A DNA stretch of 64,000 nt from a bacterium (GCA_021825445.1 JAKAHA010000005.1:21316-85315); one strand, 5' to 3'; positions 51,104 through 63,665 are shown, counted from the stretch's first letter. The notes: generated by a model not told the origin, from the sequence alone. Numbers and translations are program-made.

Positions 51104-51174
51104 GGGCCTATGGTTCAACGGTAGAATGTGGCATTCGCATTGCCAAGATCCGAGTTCAATTCTCGGTAGGTCCA
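51104..51174 (+). tRNA. tRNA-Ala (anticodon CGC)
   Basis: Hand-folded cloverleaf. Acceptor GGGCCTA/TAGGTCC with the G3:U70 Ala identity pair. Anticodon stem TGGCA/TGCCA, loop TTCGCAT. T arm CCGAG-TTCAATT-CTCGG. Discriminator A. CCA is not encoded. Confidence 0.9.
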
Positions 51175-51204
51175 CACGAAATTTGATATAATCTCTGGTA
51201 AAAT

Positions 51205-51276
51205 GGATCTGTAGTTCAACGGTTAGAACGGTACTCTTATAAAGTACAGGCGATGGTTCGACTCCATCCTGATCCA
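51205..51276 (+). tRNA. tRNA-Ile (anticodon UAU)
   Basis: Hand-folded. Acceptor GGATCTG/CTGATCC with one U-U mismatch. D arm GTTC-AACGGTTA-GAAC. Perfect anticodon stem GTACT/AGTAC with loop CTTATAA. T arm GATGG-TTCGACT-CCATC. Confidence 0.8.
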
Positions 51277-51290
51277 CAGAATGTAGTTTT

Positions 51291-51363
51291 GCCGAGATAG
51301 CCAAGGTGGTCACGGCGGAGGTCTGAAAAACCCCAGATGCGTGTTCGACTCACGCTCTCGGCA
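51291..51363 (+). tRNA. tRNA-Phe (anticodon GAA)
   Basis: Hand-folded. Acceptor GCCGAGA/TCTCGGC. Anticodon stem GAGGT/ACCCC with one A:C mismatch, loop CTGAAAA. T arm GCGTG-TTCGACT-CACGC. The D arm GCC-AAGGTGGTCA-CGGC is atypical. Confidence 0.75.
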
Positions 51364-51389: not shown

Positions 51390-52898
51390 ATGCGAAAAAT
51401 TCCAGGTACGATGATTTCTCAACATCCGGACCATGGTAATAAACCTTATTGGCAAAAAAATGCTTTCATAAAAACTGGGGATGAAATAAAAGAATGTTTT
51501 TTATCTTTTTCTGAACTTGGAACTTCTGAATATAAGTGGGACTGGGAAGGGAAATATGTTGACGAATCAGTGATCGAGAAATTGTTGAGCGAACACCACG
51601 AATATTTTAAAAAAAATCTACTTGGAAAAGAAAAATTTTTAACTTTTAGATTACCTAATCCAAAAGTAGAAACAGAATTTCGGTTGGGACGAGCATTTAT
51701 GGGAATACTGGGCGCAGCTGGACTTGCCAAAAAAATTGGTCTTCATAGTCCGCCACTATTTGAAGTAATTCTACCAATGACTGAGTCAGCCGAAGAAATG
51801 ATTGCAATTCAAGAAGCTTTTAAAGAAATAGCATCGCTTAAACACGCTCTTTATGATTTTGGAGAAGAAAGCTTAAAGCATATTGAAATAATTCCGTTAT
51901 TTGAACAAGTGTCAACAATTATCAGCTCGCATAAAATTTTGGAAAAATATTTACAATTGCATAAAAAAATATTTAATTTTAAACCGCTATATATTCGACC
52001 ATATTTAGCTCGCTCTGACCCGGCTTTAAATTCAGGACTTGTCCCTACAGTTTTGGCTATCAAAATCGGACTTTCGCATTATCTGGATTTTGAGAAAAAA
52101 TATAATATTAAACTTTATCCAATCATTGGTTCGGCATCTTTGCCTTTTCGTGGAGGGCTGACACCAAATACGGTTGAGCAATTTTGTCATGAATACAGGG
52201 GGATAAAAACAGTTCTGATACAAAGCGCTTTTAGATATGATTATGAAAAAAAATCAGTCATAACGGCAATAAAAAAATTGGAAAAAATTCTTCCTTCAGG
52301 AAAAGCCGATTCAATTTCAAAAAAAGAGGAAGAAAAATTGGAAAAAATAATTTCTGTTTTTGAAAAATATTATCGAAGTTCAGTTGAGACAATCGCTGAA
52401 CTGGTCAACAATGTATCGGGATACTTGCCAAAAAGACGGGAAAGAGTCTTGCATATTGGACTTTTTGGATATTCTCGAGGCGTAGGTAAGGTGAGATTAC
52501 CAAGAGCGATTGGTTTTACTGGTGCTTTATATTCATTGGGAATTCCGCCAGAAATAATCGGGACTGGTCGGGGAATAAAATATGCAATTGAAAATAATCA
52601 GATAAAATTATTAGAGAAATATTATTTAAATATCAAAGATGATCTAAAAAAAGCTGGTCGATTTGTCCAAAAAGATGAGCTAATAAAATTAGCACATGGA
52701 GGATCCCAAGTTTGGAAAGATATTTTAAACGATATTGTAGAGATAGAAAAATATTTAGGAGAAAAATTTATACCAAAGACAGCCGCCGAAAGAGAACATT
52801 TTGTGCTTGTTAAAAAACTTCACGAAAAAATCGACTCTGGAAAAAATTATCAAATATATCTCAATAAATTGGCTGTTCTTAGGAAAAGTTTGGGATAA
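51390..52898 (+). CDS. ppcA: Archaeal-type phosphoenolpyruvate carboxylase
   Basis: N-terminus MRKIPGTMISQHPDH matches the characteristic atPEPC start (IPR-MSTQHPDN). The roughly 500-aa length fits atPEPC rather than the roughly 900-aa bacterial Ppc. Confidence 0.85.
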   Translation: MRKIPGTMISQHPDHGNKPYWQKNAFIKTGDEIKECFLSFSELGTSEYKWDWEGKYVDESVIEKLLSEHHEYFKKNLLGKEKFLTFRLPNPKVETEFRLGRAFMGILGAAGLAKKIGLHSPPLFEVILPMTESAEEMIAIQEAFKEIASLKHALYDFGEESLKHIEIIPLFEQVSTIISSHKILEKYLQLHKKIFNFKPLYIRPYLARSDPALNSGLVPTVLAIKIGLSHYLDFEKKYNIKLYPIIGSASLPFRGGLTPNTVEQFCHEYRGIKTVLIQSAFRYDYEKKSVITAIKKLEKILPSGKADSISKKEEEKLEKIISVFEKYYRSSVETIAELVNNVSGYLPKRRERVLHIGLFGYSRGVGKVRLPRAIGFTGALYSLGIPPEIIGTGRGIKYAIENNQIKLLEKYYLNIKDDLKKAGRFVQKDELIKLAHGGSQVWKDILNDIVEIEKYLGEKFIPKTAAEREHFVLVKKLHEKIDSGKNYQIYLNKLAVLRKSLG

Positions 52899-54212: not shown

Positions 54213-54458
54213 ATGTTTACGGTTTATATTTTAAAGTCGAAAACAACAGGTAAGTTCTACATCGGTTGTACAAATAACATTATTAGAAGATTGCAAGAAC
54301 ATAACGCAAATAAAACACGGTCAATAAAAAATAAAGGACCATTTGAATTAATTCATCAAGAAAATTATAATAGCTTGTCTGAAGGAAGAATAAGGGAGCG
54401 AAAGATAAAGTTATACAAAGGAGGAAATGCCTTTAAAAAGTTGATTATGCGGGCGTAG
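54213..54458 (+). CDS. Small GIY-YIG nuclease-domain protein (catalytic domain only, 81 aa)
   Basis: MFTVYILKSKTTGKFYIGCTNNIIRRLQEHN...RERKIK shows the GIY, YIG, Arg and Glu motifs. The 11 extra N-terminal codons in the track ORF are encoded by the tRNA fragment. The last 3 sense codons and the stop (M-R-A-TAG) lie in the tRNA-Gly acceptor stem and positions 8-10. Confidence 0.85.
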   Translation: MFTVYILKSKTTGKFYIGCTNNIIRRLQEHNANKTRSIKNKGPFELIHQENYNSLSEGRIRERKIKLYKGGNAFKKLIMRA

Positions 54459-54520
54459 TTTACCGGTAAAATGCCTCCTTGCCAAGGAGGAGACAGAGGG
54501 TCCAATTCCCTTCGCCCGCT
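54449..54520 (+). tRNA. tRNA-Gly (anticodon GCC)
   Basis: Hand-folded. Acceptor GCGGGCG/CGCCCGC, discriminator U. Anticodon stem CCTCC/GGAGG, loop TTGCCAA. T arm GAGGG-TCCAATT-CCCTT. Note C where the near-universal U55 is expected. Confidence 0.88.
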
Positions 54521-54525
54521 CATTT

Positions 54526-56271
54526 TTACAGACCAGATTGAATAACGGCAGTTCCTGCGTTTGTGTCTCCAGCACTTACAGTTCTAACTATTGGATCTCC
54601 ACCTGGATATATCCATTTAACTGGCAAGGCTGCTAATGAATATTCATCATCGATTTTACAAAAACCATTTGTAAGAAAATGTATCATACCATCATTGTTA
54701 TTATTATGTAAAAAATTAGAAAGTTGAATTATCTTATATATACCTTCAACCTTTAATGCATTTGTTAACGGTGTATTATCTGATGCATCAGGAGTGATCT
54801 TTCTATCCAATAGCCATTGTACTACTCGTAATTTTCCATATCCTAAAGCCAACACTTCTCTTTTCATTTTTTCCGTTGTGGCATTTTTTCGAATAGAAAT
54901 ATCGATATCTTGACCATGGATGTGCAGTCTTTCAACTTCCAAATATTTGGCTAGAGTAAAAGCATTTTCATAAAACGCAATTATTTTATCGTCGCTTTTA
55001 CTTAATTCTAAACCTAATTCTTCATGGAGATTTTTTGTAATTTTCCCAAATTCTTCATCGTTAATGCTAAAACTATCAATATTTCCTTTAAGTACATCTC
55101 TGAAAAATTTTAGATCTTCAAATTTCCCGGAAAATTCAAACAAAATTTTTAATTTACCTGAAGAGCGTAATATCTTAAATTGTTCAACCATTTTTTTTGA
55201 AATTTCAGAATATCTGTCTTGAGGTATTCTTTGAAGTTGGTTTGGATCAGTTGCAAAAAAATAATCATAATTTTGAGCAATCATTTTCAATTGATCATCA
55301 GTAAAATTTAATATTGGATCCGTATCCATGTTATTTCCATCCTTGTCATAATAGTGACTAACAACTGCTATTCGATCACTTTTTTTTACTTCATATGTTT
55401 TTTTTCCAATTATAATTTTTATATCTTTTTTAAATTCAATCGGATAATTAATTTTAGTCGGTGCCTCTGGAGTTGCAGATTCAACAATTGTTTTATTTTT
55501 TATTTTTCCATCCTCAATGGATAGAAATTTTAGTTTATCATTTTTGAATGTTGCTGCTAATTCTGAAGAATTGTGTTGTGTTGTGAGAGTTACGTCTTCA
55601 CCAATTGAATCAAGAAGTTTCGTCAAATGAGCTGCCGATCCACCCACTTTAAAAAAATCTGGATTAGGAGAAAATATCTCATTAATCCAGTCTCTTAGCT
55701 TAAGACCTGTTCCGACCTTACCATCAAGATCATTTATTTGCATTCTGCCGTTACCTTTACCTATAAATTGTCTAATAATGTGAGCAATAATCTCTTCGCG
55801 TGTTGTAACTATATATGGAATATTGCCATCAGTTTCCACTATTTTAATAATTTTTTCTATTACATTTTCATCGGTAAACTTTTGTGCACTGGTTATGGCT
55901 TTATCTATTATGTCGTTGGCATTATCAGGATTTAGATTTATTAACTTATCAACACAAACACTATTACCTAATAATATTTTTTTATTTGTAGGAGTCAACT
56001 TTTTACTTTCAGAAAATAATTTACTTAAACTGTAGACTCCACTATAAATAATTTTATGAGTGATACCTTTTAATTGTTTTTCTAATAATTTCATATCTTT
56101 AAATTGTTGAAGTGGGAGAGTAAAAAGTCGAGGTTTACCTGTATCAGCGTGATATGCTTGAGAATGTATTTCAACCATGACTAAAATAATATCATATTTA
56201 ATCAAAAATACATCAATTATTTTAAGTATCTCCCTATAAATATGGTCAGCCAGAGGAAAATCAGAAGGCAA
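54526..56271 (-). CDS. ADP-dependent (archaeal-type) sugar kinase family protein (ADP-PFK/GK-like, ribokinase superfamily)
   Basis: Colinear matches to recalled ADP-GK motifs: KVGGSAAHLTKLL (cf. RMGGQAGIMANLL), FEFSG...SFSINDEEFGKI (cf. LEFA...VGLNEVELASI, NxxE), ERLHIHGQ (cf. KRIHFHT), TVSAGDTNAG (cf. TVGIGDTISS). The start may be at 56178 (MVEIHS). Confidence 0.65.
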   Translation of the reverse strand: MPSDFPLADHIYREILKIIDVFLIKYDIILVMVEIHSQAYHADTGKPRLFTLPLQQFKDMKLLEKQLKGITHKIIYSGVYSLSKLFSESKKLTPTNKKILLGNSVCVDKLINLNPDNANDIIDKAITSAQKFTDENVIEKIIKIVETDGNIPYIVTTREEIIAHIIRQFIGKGNGRMQINDLDGKVGTGLKLRDWINEIFSPNPDFFKVGGSAAHLTKLLDSIGEDVTLTTQHNSSELAATFKNDKLKFLSIEDGKIKNKTIVESATPEAPTKINYPIEFKKDIKIIIGKKTYEVKKSDRIAVVSHYYDKDGNNMDTDPILNFTDDQLKMIAQNYDYFFATDPNQLQRIPQDRYSEISKKMVEQFKILRSSGKLKILFEFSGKFEDLKFFRDVLKGNIDSFSINDEEFGKITKNLHEELGLELSKSDDKIIAFYENAFTLAKYLEVERLHIHGQDIDISIRKNATTEKMKREVLALGYGKLRVVQWLLDRKITPDASDNTPLTNALKVEGIYKIIQLSNFLHNNNNDGMIHFLTNGFCKIDDEYSLAALPVKWIYPGGDPIVRTVSAGDTNAGTAVIQSGL

Positions 56272-56849
56272 TAAACAGTCTCTGATATGGCGTTAAAATA
56301 GTTAAAAAACAAAAAAATATTTCCTGCAATTGTTTCTACAAGAATTAATAATTTTGAAAAATGAACAAAGTTTTCGCTATTTGTTAATCTTGCCAAAGTA
56401 TATTGTGAAGATATCCAGGAAAAAAAAGTAATGATAAAAATTATTAAATGAATAAAAGGGAATTGGCTAACTGGGAAAAATCCAAGTAATCCAAAAGACA
56501 AAATTGCCACGAGTAAAACTGCAGCGGGCAATGTCTTTAATCTCAAATTATAAAACTTAAAAACGTAATAAGCAAAGCTTAGATCCAAAAAACTTTTTAT
56601 AAAAAATAAAGAATTGAAAATAGACAGATTTTTACTATCCAAAAAACGAGCTAAACCAGAAATTGTATAATCGGAAAAATTATAACGATTAGTTTTGACG
56701 CCCATATAGAAAGTTGAAGATAAGAAAAATAAGATTGAAAGAATCGCATTGTATTTAAAGATCGTAAGCCGATTGGTAGATTTGGATTCGTCCATAAGAC
56801 CATTATAATCCTTGGAGAATTTTTTCGAAAGCCTCTTTGTCAGAGTCAT
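56217..56849 (-). CDS. Polytopic membrane protein (DUF998-like by pattern)
   Basis: 210 aa, about 6 TM helices, DYTISGLARF motif. Confidence 0.45.
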   Translation of the reverse strand: MTLTKRLSKKFSKDYNGLMDESKSTNRLTIFKYNAILSILFFLSSTFYMGVKTNRYNFSDYTISGLARFLDSKNLSIFNSLFFIKSFLDLSFAYYVFKFYNLRLKTLPAAVLLVAILSFGLLGFFPVSQFPFIHLIIFIITFFSWISSQYTLARLTNSENFVHFSKLLILVETIAGNIFLFFNYFNAISETVYCLLIFLWLTIFIGRYLK

Positions 56850-57279
56850 AAGTCAGGGTTTTTTTTACTTCATCTTGACTCACAAATTTTGCATCACTCA
56901 TTTCGAAGTCGTGATTTTTTGGATCACCCGATACGTATTCCATGAGGAAATAATAAACGGTTTTTTTGTATAGTACTCCTCCAAATTGATATTCGTATTT
57001 ACTAATAATAGGTTCAGGGTTAATAATTTTTGCCTTTATCCCGCCCTCTTCCTCAACTTCGCGGATGGCAGCTGTTTCGTTTGTCTCATTTTTATCTTTG
57101 TCACCTACAAACCCCTTAGGGAAAACCCAGCCTTTATGTTGAGAATGCTGGCAGATGAGCCAAGTTAGATCATAGATATTAGATCCTAGATGATAGATTT
57201 TTTTGAATACAATTCCTCCGGCGGAAACTTGATTAATTATTTTCATAACCAATTGCGTCTTTAATATTTTTAAATCCAT
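56803..57279 (-). CDS. NUDIX hydrolase
   Basis: Nudix box GWVFPKGFVGDKDKNETNETAAIREVEEEGGI. The start is possibly at 57246. Confidence 0.85.
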   Translation of the reverse strand: MDLKILKTQLVMKIINQVSAGGIVFKKIYHLGSNIYDLTWLICQHSQHKGWVFPKGFVGDKDKNETNETAAIREVEEEGGIKAKIINPEPIISKYEYQFGGVLYKKTVYYFLMEYVSGDPKNHDFEMSDAKFVSQDEVKKTLTYDSDKEAFEKILQGL

Positions 57280-58801
57280 CTTTTTCCAATAACTCCTCCA
57301 ACTCTAGGTTAATTTGCGATATTATTTGTGGTCCTTGATATATCATTCCTGTGATCATTTGAATAAGCGATGCCCCAAGCTTTATTTTTTCATAGGCATC
57401 CTGACCATTAAAAACTCCACCACAACCGATGATCAATAATTTTTTACCAAACTTTTTGTATGTCAATTTAATCAGTTCATTTGATCTTTTCTCACAAGGT
57501 TTACCGCTAAAACTCCCAACAGAAAATTTTTTTACCTCTTGTTTGTCTAGCAACTTACTTTTTCTGTCCTTCCAAAGATTTCCAATGATCACTCCTTTAA
57601 CAAATTTATATTTGATAACGACATTAAGCAAAGAAACAAATTCTCGGTCGGGGATAGATATGGGCATCTTGACGAAGATTGGCTTTTTTAACTTCAATCG
57701 TTTAATCGATTGAAGTAATTGATTAAAGTTTTCTGGTTTATAAAAGTCAACATCGGTATTGAGCAAATTTGGGCAGCTGATGTTAATCTCATAATAGCTA
57801 TTTTTTATTTTTAACTTTTCAAATATTTTAAATGAATTGACAATATCTCCAATCGCTTTTTTTGTTGAATCTATAGATTGATTGTTGGACATTCCGATAC
57901 TGATCCCCATCGGGATCATAAATCCTTCGACTCCGCTCAGGACAAGTTTTTTAGAAGTTTTTTCGGCTCCTAAGTTTCTAAAACCTTTATTAACCATTAA
58001 AGATCGTGATCTTGGTAATCGTCCTAAGCGAGGAGGAGGATTACCTTGATAGGATAAATTAGTTATTGTCCCCACACTTTGAAATCCAAAACCGATGGAA
58101 TAAAGAATCTGAGTTAATCTTGACTCATAATCAAATCCGGCAGCTAGTCCAATAGGTCCTTCAAAATTGATTCCGACCAATTTTTGTTTTAATTTTGTTG
58201 ATGAATAATTAAATTTCCAATTAATATATTTTTTAAAATAGCTATTTCCTAATAGCTCACCTAAAAAAATATGTGAATTGTGAATAAATTCGGCGTCAAA
58301 CAAAAAAAAGATTGGCTTAATAAATTTCTGGTATATAAAAGCAATGATAGACAATCTGAGAATAAATCTCTCTTTTTTGAATATTTTATTAACAAGAAAA
58401 AAAATTGTAAAACTCAATAATGCAGACAACATGCAATAAGTACAAATACTATTTAAGATAACAAGTTGGATATAGATAAAATATAAAGAAAAGATTGCAC
58501 CGATTGCAGATTGAAGAATAAGCCAATATATAAATATTTTTTTTCTGTAAATTGCAAACAATATTATTGCGATCAAAAGAAAAGAATATTGAATAACTCC
58601 AAAAACAGCCAGTGGAACTCCAAACATTATGGAATAGGAACTTCTCAAAACTTTGCCACAGTCTGATGCAATCGGTAAGAATCTGTTGACCTTACATGGG
58701 GGAATGACCTGGCTATAATGTTCATAAGTTAAATATCCTGCGTCTGTGATACCTAAAATGATAAAGAGAGTAAGTAAAAATGTTTTTAATTTCATAGACA
58801 C
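57233..58801 (-). CDS. pyrD: Fusion protein: N-terminal VKOR-family thiol oxidoreductase domain + C-terminal class-2-like dihydroorotate dehydrogenase
   Basis: VKOR part: loop cysteines C..(11)..C (PPCKVNRFLPIASDCGKVLRSSYS..FGVPLAVFG) and CTYC in a TM helix. DHODH part: GLAAGFD, GTITNLSYQGNPPPRLGRLP..MVNKGFRNLG, EINISCPN, IIGCGGV. Single uninterrupted 522-codon frame. Confidence 0.85.
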   Translation of the reverse strand: MSMKLKTFLLTLFIILGITDAGYLTYEHYSQVIPPCKVNRFLPIASDCGKVLRSSYSIMFGVPLAVFGVIQYSFLLIAIILFAIYRKKIFIYWLILQSAIGAIFSLYFIYIQLVILNSICTYCMLSALLSFTIFFLVNKIFKKERFILRLSIIAFIYQKFIKPIFFLFDAEFIHNSHIFLGELLGNSYFKKYINWKFNYSSTKLKQKLVGINFEGPIGLAAGFDYESRLTQILYSIGFGFQSVGTITNLSYQGNPPPRLGRLPRSRSLMVNKGFRNLGAEKTSKKLVLSGVEGFMIPMGISIGMSNNQSIDSTKKAIGDIVNSFKIFEKLKIKNSYYEINISCPNLLNTDVDFYKPENFNQLLQSIKRLKLKKPIFVKMPISIPDREFVSLLNVVIKYKFVKGVIIGNLWKDRKSKLLDKQEVKKFSVGSFSGKPCEKRSNELIKLTYKKFGKKLLIIGCGGVFNGQDAYEKIKLGASLIQMITGMIYQGPQIISQINLELEELLEKDGFKNIKDAIGYENN

Positions 58802-58817
58802 ATTATACTTCTATTCG

Positions 58818-59744
58818 TCATTTATTTTTATAGTTTTCGAAAAATTTAATTATATTATCATAAGAAAAACTCCCGGCACGAAAGCGAGATAGATAAAATA
58901 AATTATTACCAGATTGCCAAATCCCAGGAATCACAGACACGGCTGCAGTATAACCTGCAGATCTTACAGTATCGAGACTGTATTGATCAAAGGCACCAAA
59001 AGGATATGCAAATGTTTCTATTTTTATATTAAATTTATTTTCTAGTATTTTTTTACTATCAATTATTTGTTTTGTTGCAATTGATTTTGGCGATTTTTTT
59101 AAATAAAAATGATCAAGAGTATGAGAGCCAATTTCAACCAAATTGCTATCTATAATTTCCTTAATTTCTTTTTCATTCAAAAATCCTTTACGACCAATAA
59201 AATCATCAACTATATAAACCGTTGCCTTAACTTTATACTTTTTAAGTAGAGGAAAAACATCGGTATAAAAATCTTCATAACCATCATCAAAAGTCAAAAC
59301 AGCACTTCTTGAAGAATACGGAGTGTCGCCGGAAAGAATTTTAGGGACTTCCTTAACAAAGATAGTTTTATACTGGTTATCATTTAACATTTTTAATTCT
59401 TTTTCAAAAACAGATGGAATAATATCTAAGCTTTTTCTGATCGTGTCTCCTTGATCTTTTACATACTCAACGTAGTGGTACATGACAATCGGAATACGAT
59501 AGCTTTTTTTTTCTACTGTTGAATACATTCTATTTAATGTTTGTAGATTTTTGGGTTTTTCAAATACAGCCTTTTCATAATATTGTGAAATCAGTTCTTT
59601 TTCGGAAACGATTTTTTTAGTGTTTTTGTGAAATGATGGTTTTGAAGTAAAGACGGTAAATATTATTGCGAAAACAAATCCAAAAAATATTCCTAAAAAA
59701 ATTTTCTCCAAATATTTTTTGTTTTTTAAACCTAAACTAACCAT
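58818..59744 (-). CDS. Polysaccharide deacetylase (CE4, NodB homology domain), membrane-anchored
   Basis: VLTFDDGYEDFY, KATVYIV, GSHTLDH motifs. 13-nt overlap with the upstream gene. Confidence 0.85.
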   Translation of the reverse strand: MVSLGLKNKKYLEKIFLGIFFGFVFAIIFTVFTSKPSFHKNTKKIVSEKELISQYYEKAVFEKPKNLQTLNRMYSTVEKKSYRIPIVMYHYVEYVKDQGDTIRKSLDIIPSVFEKELKMLNDNQYKTIFVKEVPKILSGDTPYSSRSAVLTFDDGYEDFYTDVFPLLKKYKVKATVYIVDDFIGRKGFLNEKEIKEIIDSNLVEIGSHTLDHFYLKKSPKSIATKQIIDSKKILENKFNIKIETFAYPFGAFDQYSLDTVRSAGYTAAVSVIPGIWQSGNNLFYLSRFRAGSFSYDNIIKFFENYKNK

Positions 59745-61024
59745 TCTTTGATTGTATCAAATATGAGACACAACATACCCAACCCGAAAAGAGTAATTGT
59801 TTGAAGGGAAATATTTTTATTTGTTTCGGTTGTTTCAACACCGAGTATTTGTTCGGATATTGATGTGGGTGTTGGTATTTTTGTAGGGGTCGGGTTTTCC
59901 GATCCTCTTGTAAAGATAATTGTTGGTGTTGGTGATGGTGTCAATGTGGGAATTGATGTTGGTTGTGGTGTTGCGGTTGGTATCGGGGTGCTAGTCGGTG
60001 TTGCCGTCGGTGTGTTTGTAGGGGTCGGGTTTCCCGACCCTGTTGTTGGCGTTGGCGTAATGATGGTTGGATCAAATATTTTTAAAATCCATGATTTTCC
60101 GGAGAGAGCAATTATAGCCTGAGCAGTTGTTGTTGAATTTGAAACAAATTTGTTTGAACCATAATCAAAAGCCAAAAATCCGCCGTCATCTTTTGATTGT
60201 TGGGAAATAAGCCAATTTTTAGTATTTGCAGATGCAGTAGAATCTTTCATATCAAGAACGTTAAAAGCCATGAGGACCCAACCTGTCGAATCAGAGTCAC
60301 TTGAACCATAATATCCGAATCCTCCATCGCCATTTTGATTAGCAAGCAAATAGTTTTTTGCACGATTAATTGCATTATCTAGTCCCGAATCAGTTAAGTC
60401 ATTATTTTTTGCCGAAACCAACGCTTGAATAGCAGCTCCAGTCATATCGGCGGAAGTTGAATACCAAGCACAACCCGGGGCAGAATATCCAAAACCCCCA
60501 TCAATAGAATCCTGTTTTGAAATAAGATAACTCAAGATACTTTGTTTTATTTGAGAATTTGAAGTAGATCCTGCGGAAATTTCGGCAAGTAATCCAAAGA
60601 TATCATCATTTAAGGAACACTCATCTCCAATTTGATTATTTTTATATAAATTTTCAAGATTGGTGACATAATTTGTTCCTTTGTAATTGGTTGGATCGCC
60701 GTTTGTTGCAACAATTGCTAAAATTCTTGTTTCCCAATCGGTTGCTGCAGACGACGAACTTGGGACATTGTCAGTTAAAAAATCCTGGAGTGAAATCAAT
60801 GGATTTTTAATTGTAGAAATATCAATTCCATTTGCAGCAAAAGCGATTGATGACCATTGAGATGGAGCAGAAAAACCATTTGTGATTCTACCTGTTGAGT
60901 CTTGTTTGGATTTTAAATAATTTAGTCCGTTATCTATGATAGAATCAGCGGAAATAGTTTTGGAAACAAAAAAACATAAAAATAAGACTAAAAATATTTG
61001 AAAAATAATTTTTTTGCTCTTCAT
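59732..61024 (-). CDS. Surface-anchored alpha/alpha-toroid protein with prenyltransferase/terpene-cyclase-like repeats, Thr/Pro-rich stalk and C-terminal TM anchor
   Basis: Signal peptide. Repeats YLKSKQDSTGRI, YLISKQDSIDGGFGY, YLLANQNGDGGFGYY, WLISQQSKDDGGFLAF. Long TPTPT... linker and terminal hydrophobic helix. Confidence 0.7.
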   Translation of the reverse strand: MKSKKIIFQIFLVLFLCFFVSKTISADSIIDNGLNYLKSKQDSTGRITNGFSAPSQWSSIAFAANGIDISTIKNPLISLQDFLTDNVPSSSSAATDWETRILAIVATNGDPTNYKGTNYVTNLENLYKNNQIGDECSLNDDIFGLLAEISAGSTSNSQIKQSILSYLISKQDSIDGGFGYSAPGCAWYSTSADMTGAAIQALVSAKNNDLTDSGLDNAINRAKNYLLANQNGDGGFGYYGSSDSDSTGWVLMAFNVLDMKDSTASANTKNWLISQQSKDDGGFLAFDYGSNKFVSNSTTTAQAIIALSGKSWILKIFDPTIITPTPTTGSGNPTPTNTPTATPTSTPIPTATPQPTSIPTLTPSPTPTIIFTRGSENPTPTKIPTPTSISEQILGVETTETNKNISLQTITLFGLGMLCLIFDTIKEWLV

Positions 61025-61049
61025 AATAATTTATTTAATTTTTTGATTG

Positions 61050-61637
61050 TCAATTTCCTATATATTCCCAAACAATATTGTCTCCATTATTTGCCTTTAT
61101 ATAGCTACAACCTTGGCTGGGGGATTGACCGTTGACTTTGAAAGTCCACCAGACAGTGTTTTCTTTTCCGATTCCGTTTATTTGGTAAACAGCGTTAGTT
61201 CCCAAATCGTTATTAAATCTCATGTTTAAACTTTGTATCTTTCCTTGCGAGAGGGCATGAGTCAAAACATCACACTGATTTGAATCTTGGGGAATTCCAA
61301 AAGAACCAACTAAAGAGCCGTTGATATTTAATGAAACAGCAAGTCCTTGTTCCTCCTTGGTTGAAGTTTCGGCAGGCGGTGGGGTGTTGGTTGGTTGTGG
61401 AGCTGGTGTGTTTGTAGGTTCTATAGAATAATTTGTGATTGTGGGAGATAAATAGGGTGTAGTGCGTAGTACGTAATGCGTAGGAGATACGCTAACTTTT
61501 GATGAAATATGTTTTTTTGCAACAGATTTATTTTTAACAAGCCTTTTTGATGTTATTTTATTTGAATTATAAAAAGAAGCTCCCGCAAGAAGAAAAAAAA
61601 CTATTGCCAGAATTTTAAAAATATTTCTTTTAAACAT
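61050..61637 (-). CDS. Membrane-anchored DUF4430 (transcobalamin beta-domain-like) protein
   Basis: N-terminal TM, TNTPAPQPTNTPPP linker. The C-terminal VSLNINGSLVG...VWWTFKVNGQSPSQGCSYIKANNGDNIVWEY fits the DUF4430 pattern. Confidence 0.75.
   Translation of the reverse strand: MFKRNIFKILAIVFFLLAGASFYNSNKITSKRLVKNKSVAKKHISSKVSVSPTHYVLRTTPYLSPTITNYSIEPTNTPAPQPTNTPPPAETSTKEEQGLAVSLNINGSLVGSFGIPQDSNQCDVLTHALSQGKIQSLNMRFNNDLGTNAVYQINGIGKENTVWWTFKVNGQSPSQGCSYIKANNGDNIVWEYIGN
61460..61483. repeat. Heptanucleotide-periodic 24-mer shared with 38902-38925
   Basis: tagtgcg tagtacg taatgcg tag. It encodes HYVLRTTPY here and NYVLRTTNY in the unrelated GT-C protein. Confidence 0.5.
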
Positions 61638-61639
61638 AA

Positions 61640-61770
61640 CCTTAGACTTTTCGCTCGAAAGTCAAAACTCGGTAAAAACAAAGGTAAGTTTTCTGGCTGT
61701 AACAGTTACGGCATAGCCACGGACTTGTCACCGTGATTTCCTTTTAAGACTTGCGTCCCCTTTGTCAAAC
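61640..61770 (-). promoter_or_regulatory. Cobalamin riboswitch-like leader (compact, Cbl-II/AdoCbl-variant-like) with expression-platform hairpin next to the RBS
   Basis: Minus strand: P1 ACAAAGG(61765-61759)/CCTTTGT(61684-61678). GGAC-GCAA-GTCT hairpin. AAAAGGAAA junction. CACGG-TGACAAGT-CCGTG (core GGTGA.AA.TCC). GCCGTAACTGT. B12-box-like AGCCAGAAAACTTACC. Then GACTTT-CGAGCGA-AAAGTC and TAAGG before the ATG. Confidence 0.72.
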
Positions 61771-61839
61771 AATACGTTTCCAACTATACACCTATCAATA
61801 ATATTTTGTCAATGAGAAAAAAATTGATAAAATATAACC

Positions 61840-63081
61840 ATGATTAAAAACAATATTATCTATAACAGCTTTTCGGATTATCAATTTGAAATTTCCAAAG
61901 CACAGGATAGTTATATTTGGGACGAAAAAGGGAATAAATTAATTGATTTTACTTCCGGATGGAACGTTGTTAATTTAGGCTGGAATAATAAAGAGGTAAA
62001 TGAGGCAATTGTTAGGCAAGCTAAAAAAAATGTTTACACATCAATGTGGCTTGCCGATCCGATTCAAGAAGAATATGCCAAGAAACTTACAGCGTCTCTA
62101 CCAAAATCATTAAATACTGTAACGAGAGAAGTTAGTGGAGTTACGGCAAATATAATGGCGATAAAAACCGCAAGAGCCTTTACGGGTAAAAGAAAAATTT
62201 TATCCTTTCGAGATACTTTTCACGGGTCACTTTATCAGACTCTTCAGCTTGGCTATTCTCCAGAATATCCAATATCAAAAGCAATATTTTTAGACTTTAA
62301 AGATAATATTCAATTAAAATATCCGCGAGTCAATTTTGAAGATAAAAATGAAAAGGAAATATTGTCTAATTTTTTGCGTGAATTTGAAAAAATATTAAAG
62401 ACTGAAAAAGAAATAGGTGCGTTTATAACAGAGTCAGGAATAATTACCGGTTGGGGTTCAACATTTATTGCACCACGTAGTTATTTAACTAAGGTTAGAG
62501 AATTGACAAATAAATACGGAGTTTTACTAATCCTTGACGAAGTTGGCACAGGATTTTCTCGAACAGGAAAACTTTACGGTATGAATCATGAAAATGTAGT
62601 TCCTGATATTGTGACTTTTGCCAAGGGCATTGGAAACGGAGCAACGATCGCCGCAACTGTGACTACTCAAGAAATTGCAGAAAAAACATTTTCGAAATCA
62701 AATCCTCAGTCCACTTTTGGCTGGAGTCCTTTAAATGTTGCCGGAGCACTTAAAACTCTCGAAATTCACTTGCGAGATAATGTTTGGGAAAAAGCCGAAA
62801 AGGACGGAAATTATATTATGAAAACTTTAAGAGAAGAATTGAAGGACGTTTCTTATGTAGAAGATATTAATGGCTTAGGAATGGAAATCGGAGTAAGACT
62901 TGCCAATGGTTTGAAAAACTTTAATATGGTTCGTTTTATTGAAAAAGCCAGAAGTAATGGATTACATTTAGCTAATGCCGATAGCTATAGTTTCCAACTC
63001 ATGCCACCCCTAACAATTGAAAGAAAAGTTTTGGACAATGGTCTTGAAATATTTATTAAAGAAATAAAATCATTTTTTTAA
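61840..63081 (+). CDS. Class-III PLP-dependent aminotransferase (ArgD/GabT-like)
   Basis: LILDEVGTGFSRTGKLYGMNHENVVPDIVTFAKGIGNG (PLP-lysine motif), 413 aa. Confidence 0.88.
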   Translation: MIKNNIIYNSFSDYQFEISKAQDSYIWDEKGNKLIDFTSGWNVVNLGWNNKEVNEAIVRQAKKNVYTSMWLADPIQEEYAKKLTASLPKSLNTVTREVSGVTANIMAIKTARAFTGKRKILSFRDTFHGSLYQTLQLGYSPEYPISKAIFLDFKDNIQLKYPRVNFEDKNEKEILSNFLREFEKILKTEKEIGAFITESGIITGWGSTFIAPRSYLTKVRELTNKYGVLLILDEVGTGFSRTGKLYGMNHENVVPDIVTFAKGIGNGATIAATVTTQEIAEKTFSKSNPQSTFGWSPLNVAGALKTLEIHLRDNVWEKAEKDGNYIMKTLREELKDVSYVEDINGLGMEIGVRLANGLKNFNMVRFIEKARSNGLHLANADSYSFQLMPPLTIERKVLDNGLEIFIKEIKSFF

Positions 63082-63095
63082 CCGTGACTTCTGTT

Positions 63096-63665
63096 TTATA
63101 TAGATAAAACATTTTTTAGGTTGTTTCTATCTGTTGCCCAGTTCGTTTGATTATCTTTAATATATTCTTGAACATAATGAAATGATTTTTTGGTACGGAT
63201 GATATTGTCATAAAATCCTGGTTGCCACCCAAAAGTTGCATTGGTTTTATGAATCATTTTAGTGCAGATTGATTTATATGATCCAACAATTGATGAAATT
63301 GTATGTTTTCCCTGGTTTTGAAATCGATTTATTTTTATGTTTGTATCCGCTGTAGAGAAAAGGCAATGCCTTTTCTCTACGTAGGAAACGACATTGTTGA
63401 TAATCAAAATTCCATGAACGTGATTTGGCATTATTTGAAATTCATCTAATTCTACAAAGGAAAAATGTTTTGGAATTTCAAACCAATATTTATGTACAAT
63501 TTTTCCAATTTCTGACAAATTCATTTTATTATCGACGATTTCACCAAAATAATGTCTACGTTCCTGTGTGCAAATCGTAATAAAATAATACCCATTTCTA
63601 GAATAATCCCAACATGGTAATCGTGTCGATGGAATTCTATATTGATTTTTAAATTTATCTGACAT
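63096..63665 (-). CDS. IS200/IS605-like HUH (Y1) transposase-domain protein, REP-associated tyrosine transposase-like
   Basis: YFITICTQERRHYF, HUH motif MPNHVHGILII, C-terminal GWQPGFYDNIIR...YIKDN pattern. Confidence 0.8.
   Translation of the reverse strand: MSDKFKNQYRIPSTRLPCWDYSRNGYYFITICTQERRHYFGEIVDNKMNLSEIGKIVHKYWFEIPKHFSFVELDEFQIMPNHVHGILIINNVVSYVEKRHCLFSTADTNIKINRFQNQGKHTISSIVGSYKSICTKMIHKTNATFGWQPGFYDNIIRTKKSFHYVQEYIKDNQTNWATDRNNLKNVLSI
63352..63380. repeat. 29-nt palindrome inside the transposase ORF
   Basis: GTAGAGAAAAGGCA-a-TGCCTTTTCTCTAC (14-bp arms), encoding YVEKRHCLFST right after the HUH motif. Confidence 0.8.

Follow-up and report, generated by a model that had tools for sequence, protein, structure and literature searches.

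Does the leader of a gene string in a Patescibacteria genome sense vitamin B12 (cobalamin), and do the two surface proteins encoded directly behind it together capture this cofactor? The locus that raises this question lies in a stretch of 64,000 nucleotides (GCA_021825445.1 JAKAHA010000005.1:21316-85315, hereafter the window), which belongs to a Patescibacteria metagenome-assembled genome. A preliminary description, made from the sequence alone, had proposed that a cobalamin-riboswitch-like leader controls a split, surface-anchored transcobalamin-like pair, i.e. a DUF4430 protein and an alpha/alpha-toroid protein. Following the present analysis, it is quite probable that a B12-responsive leader indeed controls a surface corrinoid-capture pair, which would make the genes a B12-repressed operon. 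That the two chains form a heterodimer closing on its ligand is moderately likely, by analogy with the B12 carriers of animals. Positions are counted from the first letter of the window, features lie on the minus strand unless marked (+), and related loci and proteins carry L and P numbers, respectively.

The leader and its cobalamin aptamer

Judged by matches to custom covariance models, by covariation and by pair changes that can be read in the raw sequences, the leader truly is a short-type aptamer of the cobalamin clan. It spans 61677-61767 and was assigned to the adenosylcobalamin-II (AdoCbl-II)/variant type through its RF01689 match, the custom models and covariation. The outer helix P1 counts 7 bp (ACAAAGG at 61759-61765 with CCTTTGT at 61678-61684) and is followed by an extra, GNRA-capped P2 hairpin (GGAC-GCAA-GTCT, 61747-61758) that has no counterpart in the Rfam model. 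Further elements are a P4 hairpin (CACGG-TGACAAGT-CCGTG, 61718-61735) bearing the GGTGA.AA.TCC motif, P5 with its L5 loop GCC (61707-61715), and the P6 and B12-box region (61685-61705). The core elements occur in order, namely J3/4 GGAAA, L4 GGUGA.AA.UCC, an L5 with CC, ACUGU and a B12-box-like AGYCAG, and they are invariant in seven close leaders and recognisable in 75 copies. All of the leader elements that the preliminary description had listed (the GGTGA.AA.TCC hairpin, GCCGTAACTGT, AGCCAGAAAACTTACC, the 7-bp P1 and a hairpin abutting a TAAGG ribosome binding site) were found on the minus strand where it had placed them, GCCGTAACTGT and AGCCAGAAAACTTACC both within the leader. Its assignment to the Cbl-II/AdoCbl-variant class is likewise borne out, RF01689 being the best Rfam family, with orthologous leaders that pass the gathering score (L010, L011 and L021, at 39.4, 38.8 and 36.6 bits) and strong covariation.

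The spread of the aptamer was followed with two covariance models, R1, built from the seven close leaders with the layout P1(7)-P2-P3(3)-P4(5)-P5(3)-P6(3), and R2, built from 32 R1 matches. The window copy scores 117.5 bits with R1 and 92.4 bits with R2. With the latter model, 75 copies were found in 69 of 80 Patescibacteria loci (species-level genomes fetched through the toroid protein), nearly all on the coding strand and directly 5' of a DUF4430 gene or of a gene in which both domains are fused. A plain MAFFT alignment of the diverse leaders scrambled P1, and covariance-model alignments were used instead. In the first-round alignment (A4), 94.5% of the pair cells are paired and two-sided changes affect 21 of the 25 pairs, while the alignment of all 75 sequences (A5) has 91.7% standard pairs, versus 57.6% after column shuffling and 34-44% with slid partners (over both alignments, 58-68% and 33-45%, respectively); since both alignments were fitted to the model, these pairing figures are somewhat inflated. 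The covariation score of A5 is 0.68, versus 0.16 in shuffles, and two-sided changes occur in all P1 pairs and in most pairs of P3-P6. Variants of the P5 pairs are readable in the raw sequences (UAU/GUA, UGU/GCA, AGU/GCU and AAU/GUU), those of P4 likewise, and the P2 hairpin carries a swap from A-U to U-A in L007, L011 and L034.

Extra copies of the riboswitch were seen at L016:3450-4944, L033:8369-10219, L069:4998-5844 and L086:1322-2104. The genes behind them encode f53 (448-560 aa) and f89 (~200 aa), both without a Pfam match and the former also without an NCBIfam match, which are candidates for further B12-related functions in Patescibacteria. Nothing relevant was found in the literature on cobalamin riboswitches or B12 uptake in Patescibacteria (candidate phyla radiation, CPR).

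Upstream of the aptamer, a sigma-70-like promoter (TTGACA-18 nt-TATAGT, 61783-61812) has 11 of 12 consensus matches and implies a transcript start ~8-10 nt before the aptamer; L007-L011 and L034 have a -35 TTGACA and a -10-like hexamer in corresponding positions. On the other side, 14 nt past P1, the hairpin GACTTT-CGAGCGA-AAAGTC (61645-61663) adjoins the Shine-Dalgarno sequence TAAGG (61640-61644), which lies directly 3' of it and precedes the ATG of the DUF4430 gene (61635-61637). Hairpins of this kind, with 30 different covarying stems, follow the aptamer at a median distance of 19 nt and were found in 52 of 73 leaders; from its sequence and position, the one in the window probably corresponds to P13/L13. 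In AdoCbl-variant riboswitches, regulation proceeds through kissing of the L5 and P13 loops, a contact that bound cobalamin stabilises and in which at least one nucleotide is always unpaired (Polaski et al. 2016, PMC5028336). Almost every copy has GCC as its L5 loop, a sequence that could base-pair to G(A)GC in L13 with one A bulged out. The L5 variants GAC (L029) and GUC (L019) come with matching L13 changes, GAUC and GAAAC; L028, without a matching change in L5 and L13, speaks against such pairing, and with two compensatory cases and one counter-example the support for it is thin. A kissing loop between L5 and L13 would be likely but is not established. The P13-like loop reads CGAGCA (n = 30), CGAGCGA (n = 8) or CGAGCUA (n = 4), a conservation that far exceeds what a simple complement of L5 needs.

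How the aptamer is coupled to expression differs among the relatives. A strong intrinsic terminator was detected in 34 of 62 related leaders, but in the window clade (L001, L007-L011, L027 and L034) the interval from aptamer to start codon is free of terminators. Because of this absence, and because the P13-like hairpin touches the Shine-Dalgarno sequence, control in this clade is probably translational. From the riboswitch class and the functions of the genes, we infer an OFF response to B12.

Several observations weigh against a working riboswitch in the window. An Rfam scan of the whole window at the gathering threshold returned tRNAs only and no cobalamin match. In a permissive search of the leader, the full RF01689 model (positions 1-81) aligned with high posterior probability at 32.9 bits (E = 3e-6), which is 3.6 bits short of the gathering score of 36.5 bits for this family (clan CL00101). 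The preliminary description had made a match above that threshold a test of its proposal, so that formally the score counts as a refutation. Moreover, the minimum free energy (MFE) of the leader is not below that of shuffled sequences (z = +1.19), and the MFE fold does not recover the aptamer. Together with the lack of a terminator in the window clade, this could mean that the leader is a degenerate or chance match and that expression is constitutive. Nevertheless, the aptamer is ~95% identical over seven related genomes, compared to ~70-75% for the proteins, every helix has compensatory changes across the 75 copies, and the P13-like hairpin is conserved beside the Shine-Dalgarno sequence, which makes this explanation most improbable. 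The low score fits the extra P2 hairpin: in the RF01689 alignment this insertion, which follows the 5' strand of P1 and precedes the 3-bp P3, is left unpaired, and the outer helix is mispaired. The comparative evidence overrides the sub-gathering score of the window aptamer. Matches to KRAS_3UTR, twister-P5, SNORA33 and ARRPOF in the permissive scan of the leader were dismissed as low-scoring, AT-rich or partial.

The aptamer resembles RF01689 and env8HyCbl, the structural prototype, in its short four-way-junction core without a large P6 extension, in J3/4 (GGAAA), the T-loop-like L4, the GCC loop of L5 and the B12-box-like J6/3, as well as in a probable P13 beside the ribosome binding site and a likely L5-L13 pairing that would need an unpaired purine. 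It differs from both in the GNRA-capped hairpin between P1 and P3 and in the L13 sequence CGAGCA, which is unusually invariant across Patescibacteria. Unlike in env8, the Shine-Dalgarno sequence lies just 3' of P13 and not inside L13, and J1/13 counts 14 nt instead of 7 nt.

The protein pair and its fused relatives

The first gene behind the leader (61050-61637) encodes the beta-half protein of 195 aa, which matches PF14478 (DUF4430) at 43.2 bits versus a cut-off of 23.8 bits. It consists of an N-terminal transmembrane or signal anchor (~aa 7-25), a Pro/Thr stalk (~45-100) and the DUF4430/SLBB domain (~100-195). The second gene (59732-61024) encodes the alpha-half protein of 430 aa, with Pfam matches to SQHop_cyclase_C and Prenyltrans, built from a signal peptide, an alpha6/alpha6 toroid (aa 27-320), a Pro/Thr stalk (322-405) and a C-terminal transmembrane helix (407-429). 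An AlphaFold2 model (66 homologs) has 12 helices with pLDDT >95 at aa 27-320, disorder at aa 322-405 and a terminal helix, so that Pfam and model agree with the architectures that had been read from the sequence for both proteins. NCBIfam yielded no informative names for them. Because of its signal peptide, stalk and C-terminal anchor, the toroid protein is predicted to be extracytoplasmic. The stalks are of similar length (~75 residues in the DUF4430 protein, ~85 in the toroid protein) with the anchors at opposite termini, which would place both domains at a similar distance from the membrane.

Two further observations concern the toroid gene. Its homologs share a near-invariant [VI]LG (L394-G395) before the C-terminal transmembrane helix (region aa 390-430, 59732-59850), which may be a sorting or processing signal. 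On the opposite strand, an open reading frame (ORF) of 85 aa (59865-60122, +) is the antisense of the region coding for the Pro/Thr stalk, has a Gly/Val-rich translation and is almost certainly not a gene.

The relationship of the two proteins is clearest from their relatives. The toroid protein has hundreds of them, almost all in Patescibacteria, and a DUF4430-like ORF adjoins it in 81 of 86 loci. In the split type, found in Microgenomates-like loci and in the window, the DUF4430 gene precedes the toroid gene, and the two are adjacent in all such loci (L007-L037). Most loci from Parcubacteria and Saccharibacteria have a toroid ORF with a DUF4430 domain of its own on the C-terminal side, which is the order of transcobalamin (L036-L085, and P0121-P0197 among database fusions). 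That such matches within long toroid ORFs could be hidden-Markov-model artefacts of the Pro/Thr linker was considered and rejected: Pfam finds a real PF14478 in six examples, and dozens more are present in precomputed Pfam annotations. The single-chain arrangement from alpha to beta is not encountered in the window, which has two genes, beta then alpha. In the survey of relatives that had been suggested, riboswitch, DUF4430 and toroid genes thus co-occur, with an aptamer in 69 of 80 loci besides the adjacency just given. In 33 fused-type loci (L036:7584-8123 and 32 others), the fusion gene and a second, stand-alone DUF4430 gene have between them a gene for a ~180-aa protein with a signal peptide, an Ig-like/ASH-type beta-sandwich and a C-terminal transmembrane helix.

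The shortest fusion, P0121 (Doudnabacteria, 428 aa), was modelled with a pLDDT of 88. Its 15 best PDB matches are all rat, human or bovine transcobalamin, intrinsic factor or haptocorrin (E = 5e-11 to 1e-8), aligned over ~450 columns and both domains, with prenyltransferase beta subunits following at ~295 columns. The window toroid shares 36% identity with the N-terminal half of P0121 (E = 9e-30), and the DUF4430 family aligns with its C-terminal domain at a probability of 98.8%. Since both window proteins are homologous to halves of this fusion, the pair is, by sequence comparison, a split version of a bacterial transcobalamin architecture. Constant adjacency, natural fusions, the structural matches of the fusion and the homology to its halves thus lend support to the split pair that had been proposed.

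Against this stand the results for the toroid taken singly, and the geometry of the fusion model. By sequence, the toroid matches cyclases and prenyltransferases only, and none of its matches is to transcobalamin. In a Foldseek search of PDB with the toroid alone, the top match is the single-domain squalene-hopene-cyclase-like 8PAK (E = 2e-7, TMt 0.65), with transcobalamin and intrinsic factor following from rank 13 (E = 1e-5 to 2e-4; 2V3N at E = 1e-5, TMt 0.44). Matches to these carriers were obtained, but terpene cyclases score better. P0121 itself superimposes on transcobalamin with a root-mean-square deviation of 7-14 Å and a TM score of 0.5-0.6, and its model does not reproduce the closed, B12-bound geometry. 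A search of PDB with the DUF4430 protein sequence gave no match, and the best match of the family profile, which is non-significant (E = 0.69), is the transcobalamin beta domain 5NO0. Going by the models, the toroid alone is a generic alpha6/alpha6 barrel, compatible with transcobalamin but not diagnostic of it.

It could therefore be argued that only the DUF4430 protein binds B12 and that no clamp is formed, the toroid being a separate, co-transcribed enzyme or a binder of isoprenoids, lipids or cell-wall material. Besides the terpene cyclases and prenyltransferases as nearest neighbours in sequence and fold, this agrees with the stand-alone DUF4430 proteins found in many loci, with the transcobalamin beta domain having been crystallised alone (PDB 5NO0 family), and with the NDD (aa 139-141) of the toroid's invariant NDDIFG (aa 139-144), which is similar to the acid motif DxDD that class II cyclases carry. 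However, this motif is incomplete, as the toroid reads S-L-N-D-D (aa 137-141) and the first Asp is missing, and NCBIfam cyclase models reach 23-31 bits versus cut-offs of 320-850. An extracytoplasmic toroid would also be kept apart from prenyl diphosphate substrates. Finally, the pair is adjacent in every split-type locus, dozens of relatives have the domains fused, ordered as in transcobalamin, and the best structural matches of the fusion are B12 carriers across both domains. An unrelated toroid is therefore unlikely, and a two-chain clamp is preferred.

Gene context in relatives and in the window

What the captured ligand would be used for is indicated by the loci of relatives. In 31 loci (e.g. 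L013:7380-7943), the gene immediately behind the toroid gene encodes DUF6580 (six transmembrane segments, ~185 aa), in 11 loci a PduO-type cobalamin adenosyltransferase is encoded just downstream, and class II (B12-dependent) ribonucleotide reductases and a protein resembling the S-component of energy-coupling factor (ECF) transporters occur downstream in related loci. In one locus (L021), a riboswitch stands directly before DUF6580. The sole PDB match of the DUF6580 profile is 6FNP chain A, a membrane chain of 182 aa that is aligned over near its full length (E = 1.3e-5); three DUF6580 members also touch PF12822. 6FNP is ECF-CbrT, a validated B12 transporter of Lactobacillus delbrueckii with the gene cluster nrdJ-cbrS-cbrT-pduO (PMC5997447), and chain A is read as the S-component CbrT because it is found in no other entry. 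Similar to that cluster, the relatives have the pair followed by a CbrT-like DUF6580, with PduO and a class II ribonucleotide reductase nearby. No EcfA/A'/T module was seen near any locus, and by analogy DUF6580 may act without one, as has been proposed for BtuM. The literature search on DUF6580 returned nothing relevant. In P0201 and P0207 (one of them from Solirubrobacterales), a toroid and an ECF S-component (PF12822) are joined in one chain. As far as gene neighbourhoods can tell, the context in relatives places the pair in a pathway of B12 capture, transport, adenosylation and use.

Would the ligand have to be complete cobalamin? Adjacent, separate beta-like and alpha-like exported proteins of Lactobacillus sakei, encoded in an ECF operon that has been tied experimentally to heme uptake, were interpreted as heme binders and modelled as a heterodimer with heme docked at the interface (bioRxiv 10.1101/864751), which counts against a B12-capturing pair. 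Cobinamide is also transported by ECF-CbrT (PMC5997447), and archaeal versions of the proteins may scavenge another metabolite (Burroughs 2007, PMC1796856). The pair could accordingly capture a different tetrapyrrole or an incomplete corrinoid (heme, cobinamide). Yet a cobalamin riboswitch stands over the genes in 69 of the 80 loci, the neighbours are PduO and B12-dependent ribonucleotide reductase rather than heme-using genes, and DUF6580, the membrane partner in relatives, has the B12-specific S-component CbrT as its nearest match. Such a ligand is thus very unlikely, and cobalamin is retained as the expected one.

The window itself lacks this context. Unlike the L. delbrueckii cluster, the window clade has no DUF6580, PduO or NrdJ at the locus, and six-frame ORFs of the 64-kb window contain no homologs of DUF6580, ECF-S, PduO or NrdJ; neither a B12 enzyme nor a B12 transporter candidate was found across it. 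This weighs against the proposed B12 capture. In the window clade, DUF998 stands where relatives have DUF6580; a kinship of the two was tested and rejected (hhalign probability 0.6%). B12 auxotrophy of the host, which the preliminary description had considered likely, is plausible.

The locus is flanked by a divergent class-III aminotransferase gene (61840-63081, +) and comprises seven tightly spaced minus-strand genes ending at 54526. Following the pair, these encode a CE4 deacetylase (58818-59744), a fusion of VKOR with dihydroorotate dehydrogenase (DHODH; 57233-58801), a NUDIX hydrolase (56803-57279) and a DUF998 membrane protein (56217-56849), all assigned by Pfam, and lastly a 581-aa ORF (54526-56271) without a Pfam match. 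Because the genes in 54526-59744 overlap or are separated by gaps of 25 nt at most, with a single weak terminator-like site, they probably share a transcript with the pair, as far as spacing can indicate. The preliminary description had suggested such a shared transcript. The spacing agrees with this, but linkage of CE4 (optional), VKOR-DHODH, NUDIX and DUF998 is kept only in close relatives (L007-L011, L027 and L034), and no B12 link of these four was detected.

The joining of a VKOR domain to dihydroorotate dehydrogenase, in the same gene string as the pair, is an observation in its own right. Conserved Cys residues occur as a pair, NQC...GCS, in split-type DUF4430 domains and in DTCSLNDD and APGCxWY of the toroid consensus. 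Going by these sequences, a disulfide-forming role for the VKOR of the gene string is conceivable.

The remaining gene content of the window is typical of Patescibacteria, with housekeeping genes, a long run of glycosyltransferase and PMT_2 genes, FtsEX and a MacB-type ATP-binding cassette (ABC) system. A cluster of three tRNAs and one further tRNA lie within 51104-51363 and 54449-54520, a phosphoenolpyruvate carboxylase of the PEPcase_2 family (PF14010) is encoded at 51390-52898, and the remnant of an IS200-like Y1 transposase (63096-63665) lies beside the aminotransferase gene.

Proposed mechanism and relation to known systems

The scheme that we infer, from the kissing loop and OFF logic through ligand binding and heterodimer formation to the hand-off of the ligand, would run as follows. 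Transcription would start from the promoter near 61783-61812, and the leader would fold into an aptamer of the AdoCbl-II/variant type. With ample intracellular cobalamin, the ligand would stabilise the kissing contact between L5 (GCC) and the P13-like loop (CGAGCGA), upon which, in the window clade, the P13-like hairpin against the Shine-Dalgarno sequence would keep the first gene from being translated; more remote relatives have this module coupled to an intrinsic terminator. When B12 is scarce, both proteins would be made and exported, with the DUF4430 (beta) domain on its N-terminal anchor and stalk of ~75 residues and the toroid (alpha) on its C-terminal anchor and stalk of ~85 residues. 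By analogy with transcobalamin and intrinsic factor, both domains would then close on one corrinoid molecule. Fedosov et al. reportedly found that intrinsic factor cut by proteolysis into alpha and beta fragments comes together again on cobalamin. In the relatives, the CbrT-like S-component (DUF6580) might next take over the ligand, which PduO would adenosylate and class II ribonucleotide reductase would then use.

The pair has the alpha6/alpha6 toroid and beta-grasp (SLBB/DUF4430) domains of transcobalamin, intrinsic factor and haptocorrin, and presumably their function of extracellular B12 capture. It differs from this family in consisting of two polypeptides, in its beta-then-alpha gene order and in having a transmembrane helix and Pro/Thr stalk on each chain; unlike in transcobalamin, the toroid has no sequence similarity to PF01122-type proteins, and there is no receptor-mediated endocytosis.

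The idea of a split or fused bacterial B12 scavenger has been published before, as a prediction. The SLBB superfamily was defined by Burroughs, Balaji, Iyer and Aravind (2007, PMC1796856), who also reported transcobalamin-like SLBB proteins from bacteria. These are secreted or anchored, occur as fusions to an alpha/alpha toroid with either domain first, and often have a second SLBB protein beside them; their hosts lack B12 synthesis. The same authors suggested that such proteins scavenge B12 and that the carriers of animals are of bacterial origin. The window pair shares with these proteins the secreted or surface-anchored SLBB domain, the fused or accompanying toroid and the predicted function. 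The examples given then came mainly from Firmicutes; their operons include CbiO/CbiQ-type ECF genes and the proteins have LPXTG anchors, whereas the window operon has no ECF or ABC gene, anchors that are transmembrane helices, a Patescibacteria host and explicit riboswitch control. Lsa1839 and Lsa1840 of L. sakei are likewise separate exported beta-like and alpha-like proteins encoded side by side, with a heterodimer model templated on transcobalamin and haptocorrin; they differ in their ECF operon (Lsa1836-1838) and heme uptake, in that no riboswitch has been reported, and in having been described as soluble instead of stalk-anchored. Given the prediction of 2007 and the heterodimer model for the L. 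sakei split pair, the preliminary description overstated the novelty of a bacterial two-chain system. New here are the spread across Patescibacteria, the link to a riboswitch and DUF6580 as a partner. No published B12 binding by any bacterial member of this kind of protein was found in the literature searched.

Patescibacteria have minimal genomes and rely on other cells, and their acquisition of cofactors is largely unexplained. A locus type that is present in 69 of 80 sampled species-level genomes with a toroid gene offers a concrete and testable B12 pathway, whose parts are a sensor RNA, a split or fused surface binder, a CbrT-like DUF6580, PduO and a B12-dependent ribonucleotide reductase. 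The many fused and split bacterial counterparts of transcobalamin are furthermore useful for the proposal that the B12 carriers of animals are of bacterial origin, and for the study of ligand-induced domain assembly. Tentatively, and with rather more doubt than confidence, it may be suggested that Patescibacteria, most of which are ultra-small episymbionts, share a riboswitch-controlled pathway of B12 piracy, with a ligand-closed clamp of two separately tethered chains on stalks of matched length in Microgenomates, a DUF6580 that receives the vitamin and acts solitarily, and f53 and f89 as further B12 genes. If this is true, bacteria would have in this clamp their first example of a two-chain B12 binder assembled by its ligand, and the pathway would be the main route by which B12 enters the cells of a very large radiation.

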